Virus record (IMG/VR): IMGVR_UViG_2695420685_000020
Reading direction: 5' to 3' (one strand)
Origin: a virus
Lineage: Duplodnaviria; Heunggongvirae; Uroviricota; Caudoviricetes
Length of the DNA stretch: 9,272 nucleotides
The notes under the pieces are model-generated. The model searched no databases, was not told where the DNA came from, and saw only the letters and a list, made by a program, of their open reading frames with translations. Shown in pieces: positions 105 through 9,272 of the stretch (its first letter is position 1; every line of letters begins with the position of its first letter). The position numbers and the translations under genes are program-made.

Positions 105-353
105 GATGGCGACTATGAAACTATTCTCGCGCGAATGCAGCGTCGGGCTGGGCATTTTATGCCGGTAGCGTTACTAAAAAGTCAGTTTGAGGCACTGGAG
201 CGTCCACAAGCAGATGAACAGGATATTGTGCGCATTGATATCAACCATGATATTGCCAATGTCACCGAACAATGTCGGCAGGCTGTGCTGGCGATACGAC
301 AAAACAGAATATGTGCGAAAGAGGGCAGCGCCTCAGATCAGCGCTGCGAATGA
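105..353 (+). pseudogene. idnK: 3' fragment of a gluconokinase gene (IdnK/GntK family), apparently truncated by the IS1 insertion
   Basis: ORF track 135-353 (72 aa) plus in-frame upstream codons from 105 (DGDYETILARMQ...) resemble the gluconokinase C-terminus (LLKSQFEALERPQADE... compare GntK LLVSQFETLQEPGADE). The frame hits TAA at 87-89 inside the IS1 end, so no P-loop N-terminus is present in this window. Position next to ahr and leuX fits idnK. Confidence 0.6.
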
Positions 354-356
354 TTT

Positions 357-1376
357 TCAATAATCGGCTTTCAACACCACGCGGTAACGCGCCTTACCGT
401 CGCGCACATGCTGGATGGCGTCGTTAATTTTCGACATCGGGAACAGTTCGGTGGTCGGCGCAACCTTGCTGCGGGCGGCAAAACGCATCAGCTTACGCAG
501 CTCATAAGGCGTGCCGGTAGCAGAACCAGAGACGCTGCGATCGCCCGCAATTAACGTAAAGGCCGGAACAGACAGCGGCGTGAGAACCGCACCGACCGTA
601 TGGAAATTACCGCCATAGGTCAGCGCCTCAAAATAGGGCTGCCAGTCGAGGCTGACGTTGACGGTGTTGATAATGAGATCAAACTGCCCCGCCAGTGCTT
701 TCAGTGCCTGCGGATCGCGGCTATTCACCACTTTATCGGCACCCATCGCCAGCACTTCCTGCTCTTTCGCCGGATTAGAACTAAAGGCTGTCACCTCGCA
801 TCCCATTGCGTGCAGAAGTTTTATAGCGATATGCCCCAGCCCGCCAATACCAATTACCCCAACGCGGCTGGTAGCAGTGATATGGTGCATCAACAGTGGT
901 TTAAAGACCGTGATACCGCCGCACAACAGCGGCCCGGCGGACTCGATATCAATATTTTCTGGCAGTGGAATCACCCATTGCCAGTCCGCACGCAACTTCT
1001 CGGCAAAGCCACCGCGATTCATAATCGTCGGCACCGCACCTTGCTCGCAGTTGATCTGATTACCGCTAATACAGGCGTCGCAGTGACCACAGCTACGCGC
1101 CGTCCAGCCAATCCCGACACGCTGACCGACCTGCAAACCTTTATCCTGCGCGGCGCTCCCGAGTGCCACCACGCGCCCAATCACCTCATGCCCGGCAACC
1201 AGCGGATATTGTGAAAATCCCCATTCGTTATCGATCATCGACAGATCGGAATGGCAGATCCCGCAGTAATCCACCTGCACTTCAACATCTTGTGGCCTCA
1301 GCTCACCGGGATCGTACTCATAAACTTCCAGTTCTCCGCCCGCTTCTTTTGCGGCATAGCTTTTTATCATCGACAT
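357..1376 (-). CDS. ahr: Zn-dependent NADPH aldehyde reductase Ahr (YjgB), medium-chain dehydrogenase/reductase family, 339 aa
   Basis: ORF track 357-1418 minus. Likely true start is ATG at 1376 (MSMIKSY...) with AGAAGGA Shine-Dalgarno upstream. Zn/ADH motifs present: CGICHSD, GHEVIG, CGHCDAC, and Rossmann GIGGLGH. Stop TGA at 357-359, 3 nt from the convergent idnK stop. Confidence 0.9.
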
Positions 1377-1513
1377 TTTTTGGTCCTTCTCTGGTGTTGT
1401 TTGGGAAGTGTAGAGCATGGCAGGGCGGGGTGCCTGGAGTGTGACAAAGGTTACACATCGCTGTATGCAATGCTGAAAATTTCAGCACTTAGCGAGGTGC
1501 GAGCAAGCTGGCG

Positions 1514-1542
1514 CTTGCATGGTGGCGTGCGACAGGTATAAT
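1514..1542 (+). promoter_or_regulatory. Candidate sigma70 promoter for leuX (-35 CTTGCA/TTGCAT, -10 TATAAT at 1537-1542)
   Basis: Perfect TATAAT hexamer with TTGCAT 16 nt upstream (or CTTGCA at 17 nt), about 30 nt upstream of the mature tRNA 5' end at 1572. Confidence 0.45.
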
Positions 1543-1571
1543 CCACAACGTTTTCCGCATACCTCTTCAGT

Positions 1572-1656
1572 GCCGAAGTGGCGAAATCGGTAGACGCAGT
1601 TGATTCAAAATCAACCGTAGAAATACGTGCCGGTTCGAGTCCGGCCTTCGGCACCA
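1572..1656 (+). tRNA. leuX: tRNA-Leu (anticodon CAA), 85 nt with long variable arm and encoded CCA
   Basis: GCCGAAGTGGCGAAATCGGTAGACGCAGTTGATTCAAAATCAACCGTAGAAATACGTGCCGGTTCGAGTCCGGCCTTCGGCACCA: acceptor stem GCCGAAG/CTTCGGC, anticodon loop TTCAAAA (CAA), T-arm GGTTCGAGTCC. Confidence 0.92.
1637..1656. other. Probable attL core region (3' end of leuX) of the integrated P4-like element; exact core boundaries not determinable
   Basis: Inference only: P4-family integrases integrate into the 3' end of tRNA genes and an integrase gene starts about 150 bp downstream. The matching attR copy would lie beyond the window. Confidence 0.3.
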
Positions 1657-1768
1657 TTATTACTTCCAAGTCCATCCGAGTAAGTCCGATTATCCATTAA
1701 AAATCAATACTTTCAGCGATTTCTACGATCCTGGATCGTCCGAGGTTGTCCGTTGAAATCCGGATGTC

Positions 1769-1791
1769 ATTGGGGGCATAATTGGGGGCAT
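1769..1791 (+). repeat. Tandem 11-bp direct repeat ATTGGGGGCAT x2 (1769-1779 and 1781-1791) just upstream of int
   Basis: Seen directly: cATTGGGGGCATaATTGGGGGCATc. Function unknown; position between the attachment region and the int start suggests an integrase arm-type or regulatory site. Confidence 0.5.
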
Positions 1792-1808
1792 CTTAACTTC
1801 GATTAGAA

Positions 1809-3095
1809 ATGTGCCCCCAAATGAAGCTCAATGCTAGACAAGTCGAGACAGCAAAGCCAAAAGACAAAAGCTACAAAATGGCCGATGGCGGCGGTTTGTA
1901 TCTCGAGGTTTCGGCCAAGGGGTCTAAATACTGGCGCATGAAATACCGACGCCCCTCTGACAAAAAAGAGGATCGCCTCGCTTTTGGTGTTTGGCCGACC
2001 GTGACGCTTGCTGAAGCTAGAAAGAGGAGGGATGAAGCGAAAAAGTTGCTGGCGCAAGGTATAGATCCAAAAGCAGTACAGAAAGAGGCTCAAGCAGAGA
2101 ATGCTGGTGCTTATAATTTTGAAACTATTGCTCGTGAATGGCACGCCAGCAACAAACGTTGGAGTGAGGATCATCGGGCGCGTGTTCTTCGCTATCTAGA
2201 GCTGTATATCTTTCCTTATATTGGCTTGTCTGATATCCGACAGCTTAAAACTAGCCATCTTTTAGCACCGATAAAAAAAGTTGATGCCAGTGGTAAGCAT
2301 GATGTGGCGCAGCGTCTTCAGCAACGTGTTACTGCTATTATGCGCTATGCCGTACAGAACGATTATATAGATTCAAATCCTGCAAGTGATATGGCTGGTG
2401 CGTTATCGACAGCTAAAACGCGGCACTATCCAGCTCTACCATCACATCGTTTTCCTGAGTTCTTAGCACGTCTTGCTGCATATCGTGGTCGTATGATGAC
2501 GAAAATTGCGGTTGAACTTTCTTTATTAACATTTGTTCGTTCCAGTGAGCTACGTTTCGCTCGCTGGGATGAATTCGACTTCGATAAATCTCTATGGCGT
2601 ATACCTGCAAAACGCGAGGAAATTAAAGGCGTACGTTACTCATATAGAGGAATGAAGATGAAGGAAGAGCATCTCGTTCCACTTAGTAGGCAAGCGATAG
2701 GGTTGTTGGAGCAGTTAAAGCAGATTAGTGGTGATAAGACGCTGCTTTTCCCTGGGGATCATGACGCAACTAAGGTTATGAGTGAGAACACTGTTAATAA
2801 TGCATTGCGTGCGATGGGCTATGATACGAAAACAGAAGTTTGCGGACATGGTTTTAGGACAATGGCACGTGGTGCGTTAGGAGAGTCAGGATTATGGAGT
2901 GATGATGCTATTGAACGCCAATTGAGCCATTCGGAACGTAATAATGTGCGAGCTGCGTATATTCATACGTCTGAGCATTTAGATGAGCGCAGACTAATGG
3001 TCCAATGGTGGGCAGATTATCTTTATTCCAACAGAGAGAAGCATATCTCTGCTTTTGAATTTGCAAATAAACTTAATAAAAATAGCCTTGATTAA
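1809..3095 (+). CDS. int: P4-family tyrosine integrase (site-specific recombinase), 428 aa (alternative ATG start at 1821)
   Basis: ORF track 1809-3095. N-terminal arm-binding-type region (AKPKDKSYKMADGGGLYLEV), C-terminal catalytic region with HGFRTMARGAL (H-x-x-R) and RAAYIH (catalytic Tyr). Located directly downstream of a tRNA gene. Confidence 0.9.
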   Translation: MCPQMKLNARQVETAKPKDKSYKMADGGGLYLEVSAKGSKYWRMKYRRPSDKKEDRLAFGVWPTVTLAEARKRRDEAKKLLAQGIDPKAVQKEAQAENAGAYNFETIAREWHASNKRWSEDHRARVLRYLELYIFPYIGLSDIRQLKTSHLLAPIKKVDASGKHDVAQRLQQRVTAIMRYAVQNDYIDSNPASDMAGALSTAKTRHYPALPSHRFPEFLARLAAYRGRMMTKIAVELSLLTFVRSSELRFARWDEFDFDKSLWRIPAKREEIKGVRYSYRGMKMKEEHLVPLSRQAIGLLEQLKQISGDKTLLFPGDHDATKVMSENTVNNALRAMGYDTKTEVCGHGFRTMARGALGESGLWSDDAIERQLSHSERNNVRAAYIHTSEHLDERRLMVQWWADYLYSNREKHISAFEFANKLNKNSLD

Positions 3096-3172
3096 GTCTC
3101 CGCTTAGTTTGAACTAGCCTTCATCAACAGCAATGCTTGTGTCTTTTTAACCTTCACTTAACACCTTCTTAG

Positions 3173-3213
3173 GCAATTATTCCATTGCTTTTAAAAACTA
3201 AGTATTCCTTAGT
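3173..3213. promoter_or_regulatory. Two palindromic operator candidates (C-boxes) upstream of the controller gene: GCAAT-N6-ATTGC (3173-3188) and CTAAG-N5-CTTAG (3198-3212)
   Basis: Seen directly: GCAATtattccATTGC and aCTAAGtattcCTTAGt. Both carry a TATTCC centre and sit 50-90 bp upstream of the C-gene ATG at 3263. From memory, CTAAG-N5-CTTAG is the reported C.EcoO109I binding site. Confidence 0.55.
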
Positions 3214-3262
3214 AATTTCGAGTGTAAAAAGTGCAAACCTACCTCCAAAAAGAGGATTTTCG

Positions 3263-3568
3263 ATGCTTCCAATTAGGTTAAAAAAAGCCCGATTGAATGC
3301 TGGGTTAACTCAAGAACAGCTGGGAATACTTGTTGGCATTGATGAATGCTCTGCCAGTGCTCGCATGAATCAATATGAGAAAGGTAAACATATGCCCGAT
3401 TTTTCACTTACTAAAAAAATCGCTGATTTATTAAATGTCCCTGTCTCATATTTTTACACACCCGAAGATGACTTGGCAGAAATTATTTTGTTGATTAATA
3501 AACTAGACAAAAAACAGCGGTTAATTTTATTAAAAAATTTATCAGATGGATTTATAAGTCATGAATAA
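3263..3568 (+). CDS. Controller (C) protein of an R-M system, XRE-family helix-turn-helix regulator, 101 aa
   Basis: ORF track 3185-3568 begins at a TTG; the internal ATG at 3263 has an AGAGGA Shine-Dalgarno 6 nt upstream (3251-3256). HTH segment LTQEQLGILVGIDECSASARMNQYEKGK. Stop overlaps the start of the next ORF, and palindromic operators lie upstream. Confidence 0.8.
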   Translation: MLPIRLKKARLNAGLTQEQLGILVGIDECSASARMNQYEKGKHMPDFSLTKKIADLLNVPVSYFYTPEDDLAEIILLINKLDKKQRLILLKNLSDGFISHE

Positions 3569-4379
3569 GCAAGAAGTTATACTTAAAGTGCAGGAGTGTG
3601 CTGCGTGGTGGATTTTGGAGAGACAAAGTAAACTAACAAAGTTAATGTCAGAAACAATGTCCATAAATCCGTTTATGACCCCTTTTATTTTTGATTATCA
3701 TTCCCTTAATGATTTTGATGAACTAGTTGAAGCAATAATTGCTAAGCATTTAATGACTGGGCATGATACTGGCTTTGGAAAATTGATTGATGAAAAAATA
3801 CTTCCTAGAGTGTTTGGTGCATATAAATTAGATAAAAGTTATAGAGCTGCCAACGAGCCTTTTATACACCCTTGCTTTGATGAAATAGATCATGTAATAC
3901 AAAGGGATGATGGTAGAATTGAGCTTTTATCTCTTAAGGCAGGGAAATGGACTATTCAATTGACGATGGCTGTCCAACTAAATAAAGCATTTCACGAAAT
4001 CATAAATAATTATCCTGGAGTGGCTGACAATATAGTGGTTGGGGTTTTTTATGGAAATAGCCATGGATTAACTGATAAGTATAGAATCTTACGAGGTATC
4101 AATACTGGTGCAAACCACAATGTGATTGATATTCGTGACAAAGTGCATGTATATGCTGGTAAAGAATTTTGGTCATGGCTTAACAATGGTGAGGCTGAAA
4201 CCCAGCATTGGGTACTTGAAGGTATAGAACGTGCTGTAAAAGAAGCAGATATAAAAGAAAAAAATAAAGATCTTATTGAAAAATTCAAAGAACATGTTGC
4301 AAAGAAGTACAATGAGCAAGTTCTAAATGCTGATGGCACAGCTCAATGGCACAAATTACTTGAAATGATTAATGAATAA
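3561..4379 (+). CDS. Type II restriction endonuclease candidate, 272 aa (possibly EcoO109I-type)
   Basis: ORF track 3561-4379. ATG overlaps the C-gene stop by 8 nt (ATGAATAA). Lies between a C-protein gene and a convergent m5C methyltransferase gene. Contains a plausible PD-(D/E)xK-like segment (FDEIDHV...IELLSLK). Length agrees with my recollection of R.EcoO109I (272 aa). No direct homology check was possible. Confidence 0.7.
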   Translation: MNKQEVILKVQECAAWWILERQSKLTKLMSETMSINPFMTPFIFDYHSLNDFDELVEAIIAKHLMTGHDTGFGKLIDEKILPRVFGAYKLDKSYRAANEPFIHPCFDEIDHVIQRDDGRIELLSLKAGKWTIQLTMAVQLNKAFHEIINNYPGVADNIVVGVFYGNSHGLTDKYRILRGINTGANHNVIDIRDKVHVYAGKEFWSWLNNGEAETQHWVLEGIERAVKEADIKEKNKDLIEKFKEHVAKKYNEQVLNADGTAQWHKLLEMINE

Positions 4380-4407
4380 AAAACTGGCCTAAGGGCCAGT
4401 TTTTTTT
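4378..4407. terminator. Bidirectional intrinsic terminator between the convergent R and M genes
   Basis: AAAAACTGGCC-taag-GGCCAGTTTTTTTT: 7-bp GC-rich stem (4383-4389 / 4394-4400), 4-nt loop, A-tract on the left and T-tract on the right, located in the 38-bp gap between the two stop codons. Confidence 0.65.
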
Positions 4408-4417
4408 ATGACTAATT

Positions 4418-5671
4418 CTAAACTTCTTCTTCAAGGTCGTAGTAAGAAACATCTCCACTATATGCTTGACCATTTTTAAAGAAAGATCTGGTTCTAATAT
4501 GCGGTCTAATATGGGTTTCTATATAATCTGGAGTTACTAAATCAGCAACCTTATTTTCTTGTATACGATGAAGAAGTTCCATAGCAGCTTCCCCTGCAAC
4601 TTTACCTAACCGGACAGGAACTGCGTTACCTATCTGTCTGAATTTTTCTGTAGTTGTACCTTCAAATTTCCAGTAATCAGGAAACTCTTGTATCGCGGCA
4701 GCTTCACCAACAGAAATAGCTCTAAGTTCAGTTGGGTGGCACATACTTGTTCCCGCATGATTTGGCATTGTTACTACTGTGGGTGAAGGAAACTGGAAAG
4801 ATAGTTTCCTCCAGTAAGCACTTCTTCCTCCTTTAAGATACCAGCTTTTTCCCATAGATTCTTTTTGCATTTCTTCTGGCATGCTTCTCCAGTTTCCGCC
4901 AGGTGGAACCATTGAAAGATATTTCAGTTTTCTTGGCGAAAAATTCATGACTTCTGGATATTTATCAACAAAACCGCTCTCTGGGCCAATTACATCCCCC
5001 AGCGTTTTGAATGGCGGAAGATTATCTTCTACTCTATTGCTGAATAAAGGGGAGGCGAAATTGGCTATCATTCCGAAGCGATTACCAATTAAAATAACAC
5101 GCTCCCTAATTTGTGGGGCTCCATAGTTGGCAGCATTAACTACAAAGCAATCCACATGATAACCTAGTTTATTGAATTCGTTAGCTACCCTTTTTATTAG
5201 AGAGCCTTTTTCGAAAGCAGATGCTGCGATTGTGCCTGATAGCTCCTTCTTTTTAGAAGCTGGAACTATAGACATTGATAATAAACCGCGTACGTTTTCC
5301 ATTACGAAAACTTTTGGGTTTAATTCTTTAATCATTCGAACATATTCGAAAATAAGCTGCCCTCTGGCATCTTCTAGCCCTAACCTATTTCCAAAAACAC
5401 TAAATGCTTGGCACGGTGGACCGCCAGCAACTAAATCTATTTCTTCTTTATCATTCACTCCGGCTAGTGCTAATAATTCAGAGCCAGTGCAGTCAACAAT
5501 ACTACCTTCGAATACAGCAAGATTTGGCTTATTAGTTTTAATTGTTTTTAGAGCTGCCTTATCTTGTTCAACGCAAGCTACGAGCTCAAAGCCAGCCTCT
5601 TCGAGACCTAAGTCTAACCCCATTGCGCCACTAAATAGCGAAATAAACTTTTTACTAGACAAAATAATCAC
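4418..5671 (-). CDS. DNA (cytosine-5) methyltransferase, Type II modification enzyme, about 414-417 aa (start codon uncertain: GTG at 5671 or TTG at 5662)
   Basis: ORF track 4418-5671 minus. Canonical m5C-MTase motifs: I FSGAMGLDLG, IV GGPPCQAFS, VI ENVRGL, VIII QIRERV, X GNAVPV. No ATG at the N-terminus; AGGTGA lies upstream of the TTG at 5662. Confidence 0.9.
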   Translation of the reverse strand: MIILSSKKFISLFSGAMGLDLGLEEAGFELVACVEQDKAALKTIKTNKPNLAVFEGSIVDCTGSELLALAGVNDKEEIDLVAGGPPCQAFSVFGNRLGLEDARGQLIFEYVRMIKELNPKVFVMENVRGLLSMSIVPASKKKELSGTIAASAFEKGSLIKRVANEFNKLGYHVDCFVVNAANYGAPQIRERVILIGNRFGMIANFASPLFSNRVEDNLPPFKTLGDVIGPESGFVDKYPEVMNFSPRKLKYLSMVPPGGNWRSMPEEMQKESMGKSWYLKGGRSAYWRKLSFQFPSPTVVTMPNHAGTSMCHPTELRAISVGEAAAIQEFPDYWKFEGTTTEKFRQIGNAVPVRLGKVAGEAAMELLHRIQENKVADLVTPDYIETHIRPHIRTRSFFKNGQAYSGDVSYYDLEEEV

Positions 5672-5804
5672 CTACATACTTAGCAGCCAAATACTAGGAT
5701 ATTGTAAAGGATTAACACTAATCCTCAACTCAAGTTTCAGGGATCTTAGCAGAATCTGCTTTGCAAGGATTCTATGAATGTAAATTAATAGATACTGGCG
5801 CGCA

Positions 5805-5823
5805 GTGCTTTCCCCGCCTCGCC
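5805..5823. other. cos site: 19-nt cohesive-end sequence of P2/P4-type phages (reverse complement of GGCGAGGCGGGGAAAGCAC)
   Basis: Exact 19/19 match at 5805-5823 (GTGCTTTCCCCGCCTCGCC) to the P2/186/P4 cohesive-end sequence as I recall it, located immediately downstream of psu where P4 carries cos. Confidence 0.7.
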
Positions 5824-5923
5824 CGCCCGCTTTGTGGGATGGTTTTAATGCAGTTGCGCTGACACGCTCAGGCCACGCCGGGCGTGGCGCGATCTGCAGA
5901 AAATGAGGCAGGAAAACGCATGC

Positions 5924-5956
5924 AAAGCCATGCACCTTATCGATGCATGGCTTTTT
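5924..5956 (+). terminator. Stem-loop with 3' T-run (AAAGCCATGCA-ccttatcga-TGCATGGCTTTTT); possible terminator or cos-region structure
   Basis: 11-bp perfect inverted repeat, 9-nt loop, followed by TT. Sits between cos and the psu stop. Function and strand uncertain. Confidence 0.3.
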
Positions 5957-5987
5957 CCAGTAAAAACGGGCGGATTTTCGGGGAATT

Positions 5988-6560
5988 TTACACAGACTGA
6001 CGTGATGCCAGTTGCGCACTTTTACGCGAAAAAATCATGTTCTGCGCAGGGGTGAATTTTTCACGGCTGTCATCCACCGAAGCCGCGTCAGGCCTGAATC
6101 CGATGGTCGTAAAAATGTCGCTATCCTGTGCGGAATAATTAATTTTTTCCCCCTTCGCAAGCCAGGAAAGAAGGGCTTCACGCAGGGCATCTGTGGCACG
6201 CTGTATGGCACAGTTTCGGGCAATGGCCGTCAGCTCACTGTAGCCCATCAGCTCCGGTGCCAGTGCCGCCGCCAGTGCTGTGCCGTGCTGCTGCATAAAA
6301 TCATTCAGCCGGTCGCGGATGCTGATGTGCTGAACGGCTTCATGCGAACGAATATAACGACCGGCGGTCTGATTCACCTGCCATTTTCTGACTTCGATAA
6401 TATTGCGTAATTCGTCAAGGCGACTGACGTTTCTGCCTTCTCCTGACAGAAGCCGCAGATATTCCTGTTCGGCCGCTGCCAGCTCATTTTTGCGTTGCAG
6501 CCATGCTGCTTTGTTATTCTGGCAGACCTCAAAAGCCTGCTGTAATGACATTGTGGTCAC
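5988..6560 (-). CDS. psu: Psu (polarity suppression / Rho-antagonist capsid decoration protein) of P4-type satellites, 190 aa with GTG start (alternative ATG at 6551)
   Basis: ORF track 5988-6560 minus. N-terminus xTTMSLQQAFEVCQNNKAAWLQRKNELAAAEQEYLRL closely resembles P4 Psu as I recall it (same 190-aa length). AGGAGA Shine-Dalgarno 7 nt upstream of the GTG. Confidence 0.88.
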   Translation of the reverse strand: MTTMSLQQAFEVCQNNKAAWLQRKNELAAAEQEYLRLLSGEGRNVSRLDELRNIIEVRKWQVNQTAGRYIRSHEAVQHISIRDRLNDFMQQHGTALAAALAPELMGYSELTAIARNCAIQRATDALREALLSWLAKGEKINYSAQDSDIFTTIGFRPDAASVDDSREKFTPAQNMIFSRKSAQLASRQSV

Positions 6561-6574
6561 ACCCCGTCTCCTGA

Positions 6575-6820
6575 TTAATGGTTGAATGGTGAGCTGTAAC
6601 AGCCTTTAACTTTTCGGACAACAGCCGGTGCTGTGCTTGCCGGTGCTGGTTTTTCCTCCGTGACCGGAGAACGAATCACGGCACAAATTGACTCATGCGT
6701 TTTAAATGTCGCCGAACAGTAAATATTCTGGCACTGCAGATAACTTTCTTTGACATTGTCACTCACATACCGGCTGGTGCGGGTATGCGCTGAATGACGA
6801 CAGAAAGGGCAGCGCATCAT
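6575..6820 (-). CDS. Ogr/Delta-family zinc-finger late-gene transcriptional activator, 81 aa, single domain
   Basis: ORF track 6575-6877; true start likely ATG at 6820 (MMRCPFCRHSAHTRTSRY...), overlapping the sid stop as ATGA. Cys4 pattern CPFC...CQNIYC as in P2 Ogr (MFHCPLCQHAAHARTSRY...). Confidence 0.85.
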   Translation of the reverse strand: MMRCPFCRHSAHTRTSRYVSDNVKESYLQCQNIYCSATFKTHESICAVIRSPVTEEKPAPASTAPAVVRKVKGCYSSPFNH

Positions 6821-7551
6821 GACAGCAGTCCTCTGGCCTTCAGCTCTGCTCCCTGCTGGTCCATTTTGTCCTGCCACACCTTGCGCTGTGCCGGTGTGCC
6901 TGCCACCTCATAATCCATGTGCGGGAGTGTTGCCGCTGACAGTCCGGCCAGCCGGAGAACCGGCTCACCGCTGAGGCTGATTTGCATCTGTTTAATTTTC
7001 TGCTCCAGCGATGATTTCACCTGCTGCATGACAGCCCTTTCCGGTGCGACGTAACCCTGATGGCCGGTGGTGTTGGCGAGCGGATTTTCCTGTACCAGAA
7101 TGCTCAGATGCATTGCCCGGACAAGCGCCTCACAGGTTTCATTCAGGGCGTGTTCCAGCTCATGCTCTGCATACAGACTCAGAAGGTGATGATGTGCCTT
7201 CCGGTAGGCGGTGGCCGTGCTGTCACACGCCCCTTTCAGGCGTTCGCGTTCAAAATTCAGCACCACGGCCAGATTGTCATATTCCTGTACCAGCTCCCGG
7301 CGTGCCACGCGCTCAATGTGGCGCTGTTTCAGCTCGTCGCTCAGGACACCACCGGCTGCACGAAAGGCCGTGCGCCAGTCGTCAGCGTCGTTTCCGTCGG
7401 CTTGCGCCAGCGCATTTTTTTCCTGCTCTGCCCGTTCAATGGCCGTGACGGTCTCATCCATCAGGCGGGCGTTCTCAAGATGAGCGACTCTGGCCTTTTC
7501 CAGTTGTGCCAGCGCGGGTTGCAGATATTCAGGGATGGTGTTGTCAGACAT
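6817..7551 (-). CDS. sid: Sid (capsid size determination, external scaffold) protein of P4-type satellites, 244 aa
   Basis: ORF track 6817-7569. ATG at 7551 (MSDNTIPEYLQPALAQLEKAR...) has a GAGGA Shine-Dalgarno 8 nt upstream and gives 244 aa, the length I recall for P4 Sid. Gene order sid-delta-psu matches P4. Confidence 0.85.
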   Translation of the reverse strand: MSDNTIPEYLQPALAQLEKARVAHLENARLMDETVTAIERAEQEKNALAQADGNDADDWRTAFRAAGGVLSDELKQRHIERVARRELVQEYDNLAVVLNFERERLKGACDSTATAYRKAHHHLLSLYAEHELEHALNETCEALVRAMHLSILVQENPLANTTGHQGYVAPERAVMQQVKSSLEQKIKQMQISLSGEPVLRLAGLSAATLPHMDYEVAGTPAQRKVWQDKMDQQGAELKARGLLS

Positions 7552-7623
7552 TTTCCGGCTCCTCGTCACTTCAGGTTAAGAAAATTGTGACGTACACCGG
7601 ACAACAACACGACGCATTGCAGA

Positions 7624-7641
7624 TGTGCCAGCCCTGACACA
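7624..7641. promoter_or_regulatory. Delta/Ogr-type activator dyad TGT-N12-ACA upstream of sid (candidate Psid activator site)
   Basis: TGTgccagccctgacACA at 7624-7641. Centre is about 80 bp upstream of the sid ATG, compatible with an activator site centred near -55 and a 20-30 nt leader. A second dyad, TGTgacgtacaccggACA, lies at 7586-7603. Confidence 0.45.
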
Positions 7642-7720
7642 GGAGACTCATCCTCAGACCGGCAAGCCAGGAAAAGGTCGCAGGAAAAACCGGCTTACTG
7701 TTTGTTTTTTTATATTTTAC

Positions 7721-7824
7721 TGTTCACCTCTGTTCACCTTAATAAAAAAGATAAGTAATACAGTAAATTAAATGGTGAACAATCGCAGTAATGACTGTTC
7801 ACCGTCTGTTCACCACTGTTCACC
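7721..7824. repeat. Iteron cluster of the octamer TGTTCACC (crr-like cis replication region / alpha primase binding sites)
   Basis: Direct copies at 7721-7728, 7731-7738, 7796-7803, 7807-7814, 7817-7824 and one inverted copy GGTGAACA at 7774-7781. TGTTCACC is the type I iteron of P4 ori/crr as I recall it. Located between sid and vis. Confidence 0.65.
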
Positions 7825-7982
7825 CGTTCATGGACTTTTTGTGCTGTTTATTACTTTTTATTTTTATTAATTAACTGAAATAAATAAGAAAAAACAATTT
7901 GTATTTCACTATAATTTTTTCCAGCTCCTTCCAGAGCGTTTTAAAGCCATCTGGCGCTGATGTACAAAAAATACACAGCCAT

Positions 7983-8000
7983 TGTAAGACTGCCGGAACA
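7983..8000. promoter_or_regulatory. Delta/Ogr-type dyad TGT-N12-ACA upstream of vis (candidate late-left promoter activator site)
   Basis: TGTaagactgccggaACA at 7983-8000, about 110 bp upstream of the vis ATG. Confidence 0.4.
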
Positions 8001-8102
8001 AATCCCCCCTGTTGCGTCTGCCGAAAATATTCACAAAATAAAGCGCTACCCGAAGCCGGACGGACTTATCCGGTGCTGTATGGACATTAACGAGGTAGCC
8101 CG

Positions 8103-8369
8103 ATGCAAGCTGTTTTTTCTTCCCCGTCTCCCGCCCCTGTGACGCCACTGATGCCGCTGCCGGACATCACACAGGAGCGTTTTCTACGTCTTCCGGAAGT
8201 GATGCACCTGTGCGGCCTGTCACGCTCGACCATCTACGAACTCATCCGTAAGGGGGAATTTCCGCCGCAGGTGAGTCTTGGCGGTAAAAATGTGGCCTGG
8301 CTGCACTCTGAAGTCACCGCATGGATGGCCGGGCGCATTGCCGGACGCAAACGGGGGTACGACGCATGA
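8103..8369 (+). CDS. vis: Vis/AlpA-family small DNA-binding regulator (P4 Vis-like), 88 aa
   Basis: ORF track 8103-8369. ATG with GAGGT 7 nt upstream. AlpA-type HTH segment [45 protein letters not shown]. Length equals P4 orf88 (vis) as I recall it. Confidence 0.8.
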
Positions 8370-8404
8370 TGATGCCCGCTCTGCAAAAACTCCCTTTTTC
8401 TGGC

Positions 8405-8434
8405 TTGCCTTTTTCCGGCATTTGCGGATATAGT
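8405..8434 (+). promoter_or_regulatory. Candidate sigma70 promoter (TTGCCT-N18-TATAGT) for the immunity/left operon (PLE-like)
   Basis: -35 TTGCCT at 8405-8410 and -10 TATAGT at 8429-8434, just downstream of vis and upstream of the complementary-box leader. Confidence 0.35.
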
Positions 8435-8465
8435 TTTTCCGCTGCCGCAAAATCGGCAGCCGGGC

Positions 8466-8757
8466 GTGAGAACCCGAGCAATTCACAGGCGACATATGAC
8501 GCGCCACGCGTCTTTTTTTGTGTCGCAATCAATGCCACAGAGCGCCAGATTATGGTGTGGTGTGTGGTCAGTCGTGCAGATGGCATTCCGTGCATCCTGC
8601 CCGCGTCCGCTCATTATGCCGCAGAGTCAATGGTAGCTCAGGCGGGGCAGCCTCCGGGCTGGCCGGTATCCTGTGAAGCCGGTATTCTCACCCCCGTCTG
8701 GGCTATCGCCATCGAGCGTGAGAACTCCGGCGATAGCGTTATTTGCTATTCACAGGA
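8466..8757 (+). ncRNA. Immunity-type leader with CI/c4-like antisense boxes: box A 8466-8489, complementary box B 8669-8691, box C 8718-8757 (overlaps the RBS of the downstream small ORF); RNA boundaries unknown
   Basis: GTGAGAA...TTCACAGG occurs at 8466-8489 and at 8718-8757. Its reverse complement CCTGTGAA...TTCTCAC occurs between them at 8670-8691. Box C ends in AGGAGG, the Shine-Dalgarno of the ORF starting at 8768. Confidence 0.35.
8498..8519 (+). terminator. Intrinsic terminator: GACGCG-cca-CGCGTC followed by T7
   Basis: 6-bp GC stem at 8498-8503 / 8507-8512 with T-run at 8513-8519, about 60-80 nt downstream of the candidate promoter. Confidence 0.5.
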
Positions 8758-8767
8758 GGCTGCCATC

Positions 8768-8965
8768 ATGGCTACAACCCTTACCCCCTCACACCCTGAA
8801 TTTGTCTTTGTGTTTGCGGCTGTCCGTCGCGCAGACCGTCATCCCCGTATCTGTATGCTTCGCACCGTCGCCGGTGATGAACGCAGTGCCCGCCGTTCCC
8901 TTGTCCGTGACTATGTGCTCTCCCTTGCTGCCCGTCTGCCGGTGGTGGAGGTGTCCCGTGCGTAA
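8768..8965 (+). CDS. Small Icd/Kil-like protein (65 aa), first gene after the immunity leader
   Basis: ATG at 8768 with AGGAGG 8 nt upstream ([65 protein letters not shown]). It is the C-terminal part of track ORF 8321-8965, whose upstream portion is the non-coding leader. Family assignment is by position and recollection of P4-like annotations only. Confidence 0.55.
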
Positions 8966-9245
8966 TAAAAAAGCCCCTCAGACCGTCTCAGCACGTCATG
9001 ACGCCCGTGAACACCTCAGCATTGAGGCTTACCATAAGCTCAACCGCGCCAGCGCCGTATCCCAGTTTGTTGGGGGTGATTTGATTCACCGTGAACTCTC
9101 CGGCCTGCATCAGCTCTACATTCCGCATATTTTCAGTTACCTGAATGAAGATATTGATTTTGTGCTGAATGAACTGAAAGCCAAAGGCCTGTGCCGCGAT
9201 TTTCTCGCCCAGCAGAAAGACCGGGGAGACAGGACGCATGTTTGA
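8958..9245 (+). CDS. Hypothetical protein (95 aa) with GTG start overlapping the preceding stop (GTGCGTAA)
   Basis: Open frame to TGA at 9243-9245 with no in-frame ATG. GTG at 8958 is preceded by GGAGGT (8947-8952) at 5-nt spacing. Corresponds to the 3' part of track ORF 8673-9245. Confidence 0.45.
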
Positions 9246-9272
9246 TTTTCCCCAGCCCGGTGAGATTTACCG
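9238..9272 (+). CDS. 5' end of a further ORF ([11 protein letters not shown]...), partial, continues past the right edge
   Basis: ATG at 9238 overlaps the preceding TGA (ATGTTTGA), with GGGGAGA/AGGA upstream. Only 11 codons are visible. Confidence 0.25.
   Translation, partial: MFDFPQPGEIY

Follow-up and report, generated by a model that had tools for sequence, protein, structure and literature searches.

An iteron cluster between sid and vis of a P4-like satellite prophage in Escherichia coli very probably corresponds to the replication origin of phage P4

We analyzed a 9272-bp stretch of viral DNA, referred to here as the window. Over its whole length the window aligns to E. coli chromosomes at a site next to ahr and a tRNA-Leu gene, and a megablast comparison placed positions 6816-9272 on phage P4 (X51522 / NC_001609) with 97% identity, in reverse orientation. 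The window is thus an integrated P4-like satellite prophage of E. coli at the tRNA-Leu gene. The tRNA-Leu gene (1572-1653, + strand) is followed by the integrase gene (1809-3095, +), by a segment of mixed orientation encoding an HTH controller-like protein, an EcoO109I-like restriction endonuclease and a C5 cytosine methyltransferase (3185-5671), by psu (5988-6560, −), by a short Ogr/Delta gene of 81 aa (6575-6820, −), and by sid (6817-7551, −; 244 aa), which aligns to the P4 sid CDS. A spacer at 7552-8102 separates sid from vis (8103-8369, +), which encodes ORF88, an AlpA-family regulator/excisionase (Pfam Phage_AlpA, 7e-21) identical to P4 ORF88 at 87/88 residues. The remainder (8366-9272, +) holds a gene for an Ash-family protein (ORF listed from 8321), epsilon (“Derepression”) and the start of ORF151, within which the window ends, before alpha. 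The P4-type immunity RNAs c4-a1b1, isrK and C4 antisense RNA were located by Rfam at 8428-8713 (+); this system of CI RNA and its targets lies inside an ORF annotated as Ash/Icd-like.

The element differs from P4 in its delta gene, which is short, and in its cargo, a restriction-modification module instead of gop/beta/cII. The Delta protein encoded at 6575-6820 (−) has a single Ogr-like domain, versus a double domain of 166 aa in P4, and nucleotide similarity to P4 ends exactly at the sid stop codon (6816). Among relatives, the long form of Delta is found in locus L002 and the short form in loci L003 and L085-L092. The type II restriction-modification module occupies the hotspot between integrase and psu (3185-5671), where P4 has gop/beta/cII, and other relatives with an identical Sid carry different cargo at this hotspot, including an AAA_13/SMC-like ATPase and an ORC/CDC6-like protein. 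An identical Sid protein was present in 24 contigs among those examined.

Two TGT-N12-ACA dyads, found by pattern search, lie upstream of sid on the − strand (7586-7603 and 7624-7641), outside the repeat block described below and in a region identical to P4; we take them to be Delta/Ogr sites of the late promoter Psid, in line with the late promoters of P2 and P4. The same search revealed a further dyad upstream of vis (7983-8000, +), which would be the activator site of the late promoter PLL. Scanning of 7500-8150 for sigma-70 promoters returned no site, which is expected because the late promoters in this region are activator-dependent.

The spacer between the two genes contains a cluster of short repeats. 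Exact matches to the octamer TGTTCACC occur six times in the window, five direct and one inverted, and all of them fall inside 7721-7824, in agreement with the earlier note, which had described five direct copies and one inverted copy of the octamer within about 100 bp between sid and vis. Dinucleotide-preserving shuffles gave an expectation of 0.21 copies, and six copies were reached in 0/200 of them. Allowing one mismatch added scattered background matches to TGTTCACC elsewhere in the window, and no further copy in the region of the cluster. Analysis using a repeat finder revealed that the true repeat unit is a 10-mer, (A/T)CTGTTCACC, that is, ACTGTTCACC or TCTGTTCACC.

All six copies, which we refer to as type I iterons, are exact matches. 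Iteron 1 lies at 7721-7728 on the + strand, its full unit ACTGTTCACC starting at 7719, and iteron 2 at 7731-7738 (+). An A-rich spacer, AAAAAGATAnnTAATACAGTAA (7739-7773), separates these from iteron 3, the inverted copy (7774-7781, −), which forms an 11-nt inverted repeat with iteron 4 (7796-7803, +). Iterons 5 and 6 follow at 7807-7814 (+) and 7817-7824 (+). The centre-to-centre steps between successive iterons are 10, 43, 22, 11 and 10 bp, equivalent to 0.95, 4.1, 2.1, 1.05 and 0.95 helical turns; the steps are close to whole turns, and all six sites therefore lie on one face of the helix. On the − strand, iterons 3 and 4 (7774-7803) pair into an 11-pair hairpin with a T-rich run behind it, and in the sid direction this structure is scored as an intrinsic terminator. 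The terminator-like hairpin is probably a by-product of the inverted arrangement of this iteron pair, and it could form in unwound origin DNA.

To the right of the iterons, beginning 23 bp from the cluster, lies a block of 89% A+T (7847-7907). By nearest-neighbour energies, no other 40-bp or 60-bp stretch of the window is less stable (z ~3.1-3.2). The GC fraction is 0.12-0.27 across 7820-7919 and 0.12-0.15 in the block itself, so that the very A+T-rich flank reported in the earlier note is borne out. In nearly all related loci, a comparable block lies beyond the iterons. The block is a candidate DNA unwinding element, and melting would be predicted to start there.

In the P4 record, 9086-9809 is annotated as “origin of DNA replication” (rep_origin), and within it lie six features named “ori type 1 repeat”, at 9310, 9320 and 9331 (−), 9353 (+), and 9396 and 9406 (−). 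Alignment of the window to P4 revealed a one-to-one correspondence: iterons 1 to 6 are P4 9406-9413, 9396-9403, 9353-9360, 9331-9338, 9320-9327 and 9310-9317, respectively, and their offsets of 0, 10, 53 (inverted), 75, 86 and 96 are those of P4 in window orientation. The sid-vis spacer is 96% identical to P4 overall, with zero differences from the sid start codon to 7766 (7552-7766) and with all six repeats identical. The window thus shares with P4 ori (oriI) the octamer, its copy number, the layout of two direct, one inverted and three direct copies at the same spacing, and the adjacent A+T-rich block. It also shares the location, a spacer between sid and ORF88/vis with divergent late promoters, the activator dyads lying on either side of the repeats. 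Differences from P4 ori were also observed. A few bases of the A+T-rich block are substituted, making it still richer in A+T in the window, and the three “ori type 2” decamers of P4 are swapped for an unrelated 45-bp allele.

Since the repeats equal the P4 “ori type 1 repeats” in sequence, order, orientation and spacing, the cluster should be ori itself, and we consider it very probable that it is the main replication origin of this P4-type satellite prophage. The ori cluster as such is already known, being the annotated P4 origin recurring in a P4-like prophage. The assignment of the octamers to the P4 type I iterons, which the earlier note had made, agrees with the P4 record, and its description of the region as a cis-acting replication element rather than coding sequence is upheld by the homologous P4 bases, which lie within the annotated origin.

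Both alpha and crr lie outside the window, and a look-up of the exact Sid protein retrieved an element that extends further, L090 (GCA_048126935.1). Against window positions 108-9272, L090 shows 2 mismatches in 9165 bp and no gaps (99.978% identity). Together with the same restriction-modification cargo, this near-identity establishes L090 as the same element as the window. Beyond the end of the window, L090 encodes a cnr-like gene and an alpha protein of 777 aa, followed by crr. Its alpha is identical to P4 alpha at 767/776 positions (99%), and the C-terminal part is identical. The domain order of alpha is primase, SF3 helicase and winged helix (PMC2777425). Over residues 671-770, the C-terminal winged-helix origin-binding domain, L090 alpha equals P4 alpha, and the same residues of L002 alpha match PDB 1KA8, the P4 origin-binding domain that was crystallised, at 100% identity. 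The crr of L090 (4723-4995) is 96% identical to P4 crr and contains ten iteron copies at no more than one mismatch, in two halves of about 181 bp. In L002 and L003, alpha is likewise followed by crr with the same arrangement as in L090. The element therefore has, through L090, both an alpha with a P4-type C-terminal origin-binding domain and a second iteron cluster downstream of alpha.

The earlier note had placed a second iteron cluster near alpha and called that one ori, which would make the sid-vis cluster crr. Such a cluster is indeed present in L090; it is crr, and the name ori belongs to the sid-vis cluster. The octamer is indeed common to both sites, the alpha-binding sequence being shared and crr being a cis requirement of the same replication system. 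However, P4 crr (X51522 4291-4590), located directly after the alpha terminator, consists of two 120-bp direct repeats with five copies each. This tandem duplication, with its copies in mixed orientation, is absent from the window and sits after alpha in L002, L003 and L090, whereas the window cluster is laid out 2+1+3 and lies between sid and vis, as ori does. We therefore discard the reading of the window cluster as crr. The lack of an alpha-like gene or of a second cluster, which the earlier note had named as grounds for giving up its interpretation, is contradicted by L090 on both counts.

Two further observations were made around crr. A CDS of 111 aa covers its distal half (L003 13918-14253; L085-L090 ~4505-4840) and is labelled “integrase” in RefSeq; it is probably a spurious gene call on the iteron repeats. 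Four short contigs (L004, L005, L006 and L037) carry crr and an alpha that is 97-99% identical to that of the E. coli locus L002, itself near P4. They come from metagenome bins labelled Clostridiales, Ferruginibacter, “bacterium” and Ruminococcus, and these labels most likely reflect contamination by E. coli DNA in binning.

The position of the repeats also permits a transcriptional reading: instead of forming an origin, they could mainly be operators or insulators serving Psid and PLL, the divergent late promoters. The cluster does lie between two activator-dependent promoters (dyads at 7586, 7624 and 7983), and, read along the sid strand, the iteron 3/4 pair has the score of a terminator-like hairpin. 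The distances do not fit this role, however: the gap between the distal Psid dyad and the nearest iteron is ~80 bp, and that to the PLL dyad ~160 bp. A second group of the same octamer follows the alpha stop codon, at a place that lacks a promoter. In the P4 record the repeats belong to the origin, and the hairpin simply results from two binding sites being inverted. We regard a mainly transcriptional function as extremely unlikely; bound alpha may conceivably exert a secondary regulatory effect.

The comparison was extended across Enterobacterales using alpha as the probe. A total of 80 loci were taken from species-representative genomes, with alpha identities of 58-99%, in genera including Enterobacter, Citrobacter, Klebsiella, Raoultella, Kluyvera, Pantoea, Erwinia, Pectobacterium, Serratia, Rahnella, Yersinia and Edwardsiella. 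In 63 loci the sequence upstream of alpha extended for at least 3.2 kb; among these, a cluster was scored when at least 4 copies with no more than 1 mismatch occurred within 125 bp. An iteron cluster was detected in 47/63 of these loci, against a background of ~0.09 copies per 125 bp. The clusters, which come from many genera with alpha at 58-86% identity, have the same layout as P4, and many of the loci have a crr-like cluster 3′ of the alpha stop codon. Among complete E. coli genomes, the iteron block is present in 1002/5426.

An alignment of 32 origins gave the family consensus aC-T[G/a/c]TTCAC[C/t] for the iterons, with the core TTCAC conserved at 99-100% at all six positions. Because the 30 family loci in this alignment were chosen for having iteron-like clusters, these conservation figures are upper bounds; the count of 47/63 is free of that choice. 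The short spacers are variable and contain 1-bp insertions and deletions, which excludes a coding reading of the block. In the same alignment the A-rich spacer at 7739-7773 (AAAAAGATAnnTAATACAGTAA) stands out from the remaining spacers in that its conservation across genera almost equals that of the iterons, with a mean majority fraction of 0.79 versus 0.45-0.69 in other spacers and flanks. Inspection of 7739-7773 by eye gave no convincing match to an IHF site.

These data bear on whether the repeats could be an inactive relic in a defective prophage, intact only through recent divergence from P4. The element sits in the chromosome, RefSeq has no annotation under the iteron blocks, and the patch at the type 2 repeats is unlike that of P4, as would suit such a relic. 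Against this, the twin element L090 retains full-length alpha, a cnr-like gene, epsilon, vis, sid, delta, psu and int in addition to crr, and immunity RNAs are present in the window. Moreover, the iteron cores are kept in other genera down to 58% alpha identity as the spacers drift, which argues for selection and not merely recent divergence. A relic is accordingly improbable, and we retain the interpretation of the cluster as the P4-type origin.

A real difference between the window and P4 lies in a 45-bp patch at 7915-7960, which corresponds to P4 X51522 9176-9205 and to L002 17125-17170. About half of the columns in the patch differ from P4, and the flanks are 97-100% identical. Three alleles were seen: that of P4, that of L002, and one shared by the window and L003. 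On its + strand, P4 has at this place the type 2 repeats TTAAAGTCA, TTAAAGCCA and TTAAAGCAA at 10-bp steps; the window does not contain them. Its own patch gave a chain of two phased repeats, no better than chance. The window allele occurs in 344/5426 complete E. coli genomes and the P4 allele in 438/5426, so the window allele is common rather than aberrant. If the type 2 repeats were needed for origin function, the origin of the window would differ from that of P4.

Comparison with known operators points to a different role for the patch. The consensus of the P2 cox box is TTAAA(G/C)NC(A/C), PLL of P4 has a P2 Cox site upstream of it, and P4 is not activated by the Cox protein of WPhi (PMC3936717, PMC5009727). 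The P4 type 2 repeats contain two exact matches and one single-mismatch match to this consensus, so that they are probably part of the promoter PLL and not of the origin. Matches to the cox box number one in the window, isolated at 7941-7949, and none in L002. Judged by sequence, the patch at 7915-7960 is probably the upstream operator of PLL, outside the origin proper. A more specific proposal, which we advance only tentatively and consider rather doubtful, is that the patch serves as the operator for a helper Cox/Apl protein that switches on PLL, with alleles tracking the type of helper.

Several candidates for a partner of the patch were considered. Vis was rejected, as it is 87/88 identical between the window and P4 and has a single accession in L002 and L003, in contrast to the differing alleles of the patch. 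The likely Cox repeats of WPhi Pe-Pc (cctagaaaggac / cctagaagggac) share just 8-9 of 11 bases with units of the window and L002 alleles, which is too weak a likeness. A BLAST search of the patch against 50,697 phage records gave chance-level matches only.

Phased arrays of other short motifs were observed at the patch position in satellites from other genera. GGCAAAC occurs four times in L083 (3170-3206), phased at 10-11 bp. TTGCCA/TTGTCA is repeated four to eight times in the same phase in L023 (3436-3493), L034 (3441-3498), L018 and L007 (3477-3503), and GGCCAAT arrays, again at 10-11 bp, are found in L010, L016, L019 (3430-3475) and L078. Phased chains of at least four repeats were present at this position in ~25/55 loci, versus 4/300 shuffles. 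In phage 186, the annotated Apl operator (NC_001317 23056-23123) contains GCAA/GCTA seven times at 10-11 bp steps, with the consensus TGGCAA, and the phased TGGCAA/TTGCCA arrays in P4-like elements of other genera resemble operators of this type.

In P4, alpha reportedly binds the type I repeats and loops ori to crr; it also unwinds and primes the DNA alone, after which DNA polymerase III replicates bidirectionally, reportedly without DnaA, DnaB, DnaC or DnaG, and Cnr restrains alpha. An internal origin, oriII, has been described inside the alpha gene. In analogy to P4, we propose that alpha would bind the type I repeats at ori and crr through its C-terminal domain and bridge both sites. The adjacent A+T-rich DNA would then be opened, probably starting at 7847-7907, and the SF3 helicase and DnaG-type primase domains of alpha would unwind and prime. 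Host DNA polymerase III would subsequently carry out bidirectional replication without DnaA, DnaB, DnaC or DnaG, and Cnr, acting on alpha, would limit copy number. In the integrated, immune prophage alpha would not be made and the origin would presumably be silent, firing upon derepression or in the plasmid state.

The proposed scheme resembles that of iteron plasmid origins (pSC101, RK2, F, R6K and the P1 plasmid), which likewise have phased repeats for a winged-helix initiator beside an A+T-rich unwinding element, and a second iteron cluster able to pair with the origin. Their repeats are 17-22 bp long, in contrast to 8-10 bp in the window. A classical iteron plasmid origin has DnaA boxes, whereas a search for TTWTNCACA gave none in the sid-vis spacer (7552-8102); by its sequence, the window origin is not DnaA-dependent. 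The repeats of the plasmids are bound by a RepA-type protein, whereas the P4-type initiator is a primase-helicase, and host DnaA, DnaB and DnaG would therefore be unneeded. The likeness is an analogy of mechanism and not one of membership.

As the origin of a satellite prophage, the cluster is the same cis replication site as in P4. No new biology attaches to it. The layout of six T[G/A/C]TTCAC[C/T] units, conserved in many genera of Enterobacterales (47/63 loci), could serve as an annotation signature for P4-like origins. The variable patch is the only part that might repay more work: the “type 2 repeats” that the P4 annotation lists as part of ori resemble operators for a helper Cox protein and differ from one satellite to another. 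If this is true, P2 Cox would not wake the satellite in the window; some other helper would, or no helper at all, and the iteron origin would be a constant module of these elements, with the neighbouring patch as their helper-specificity module.
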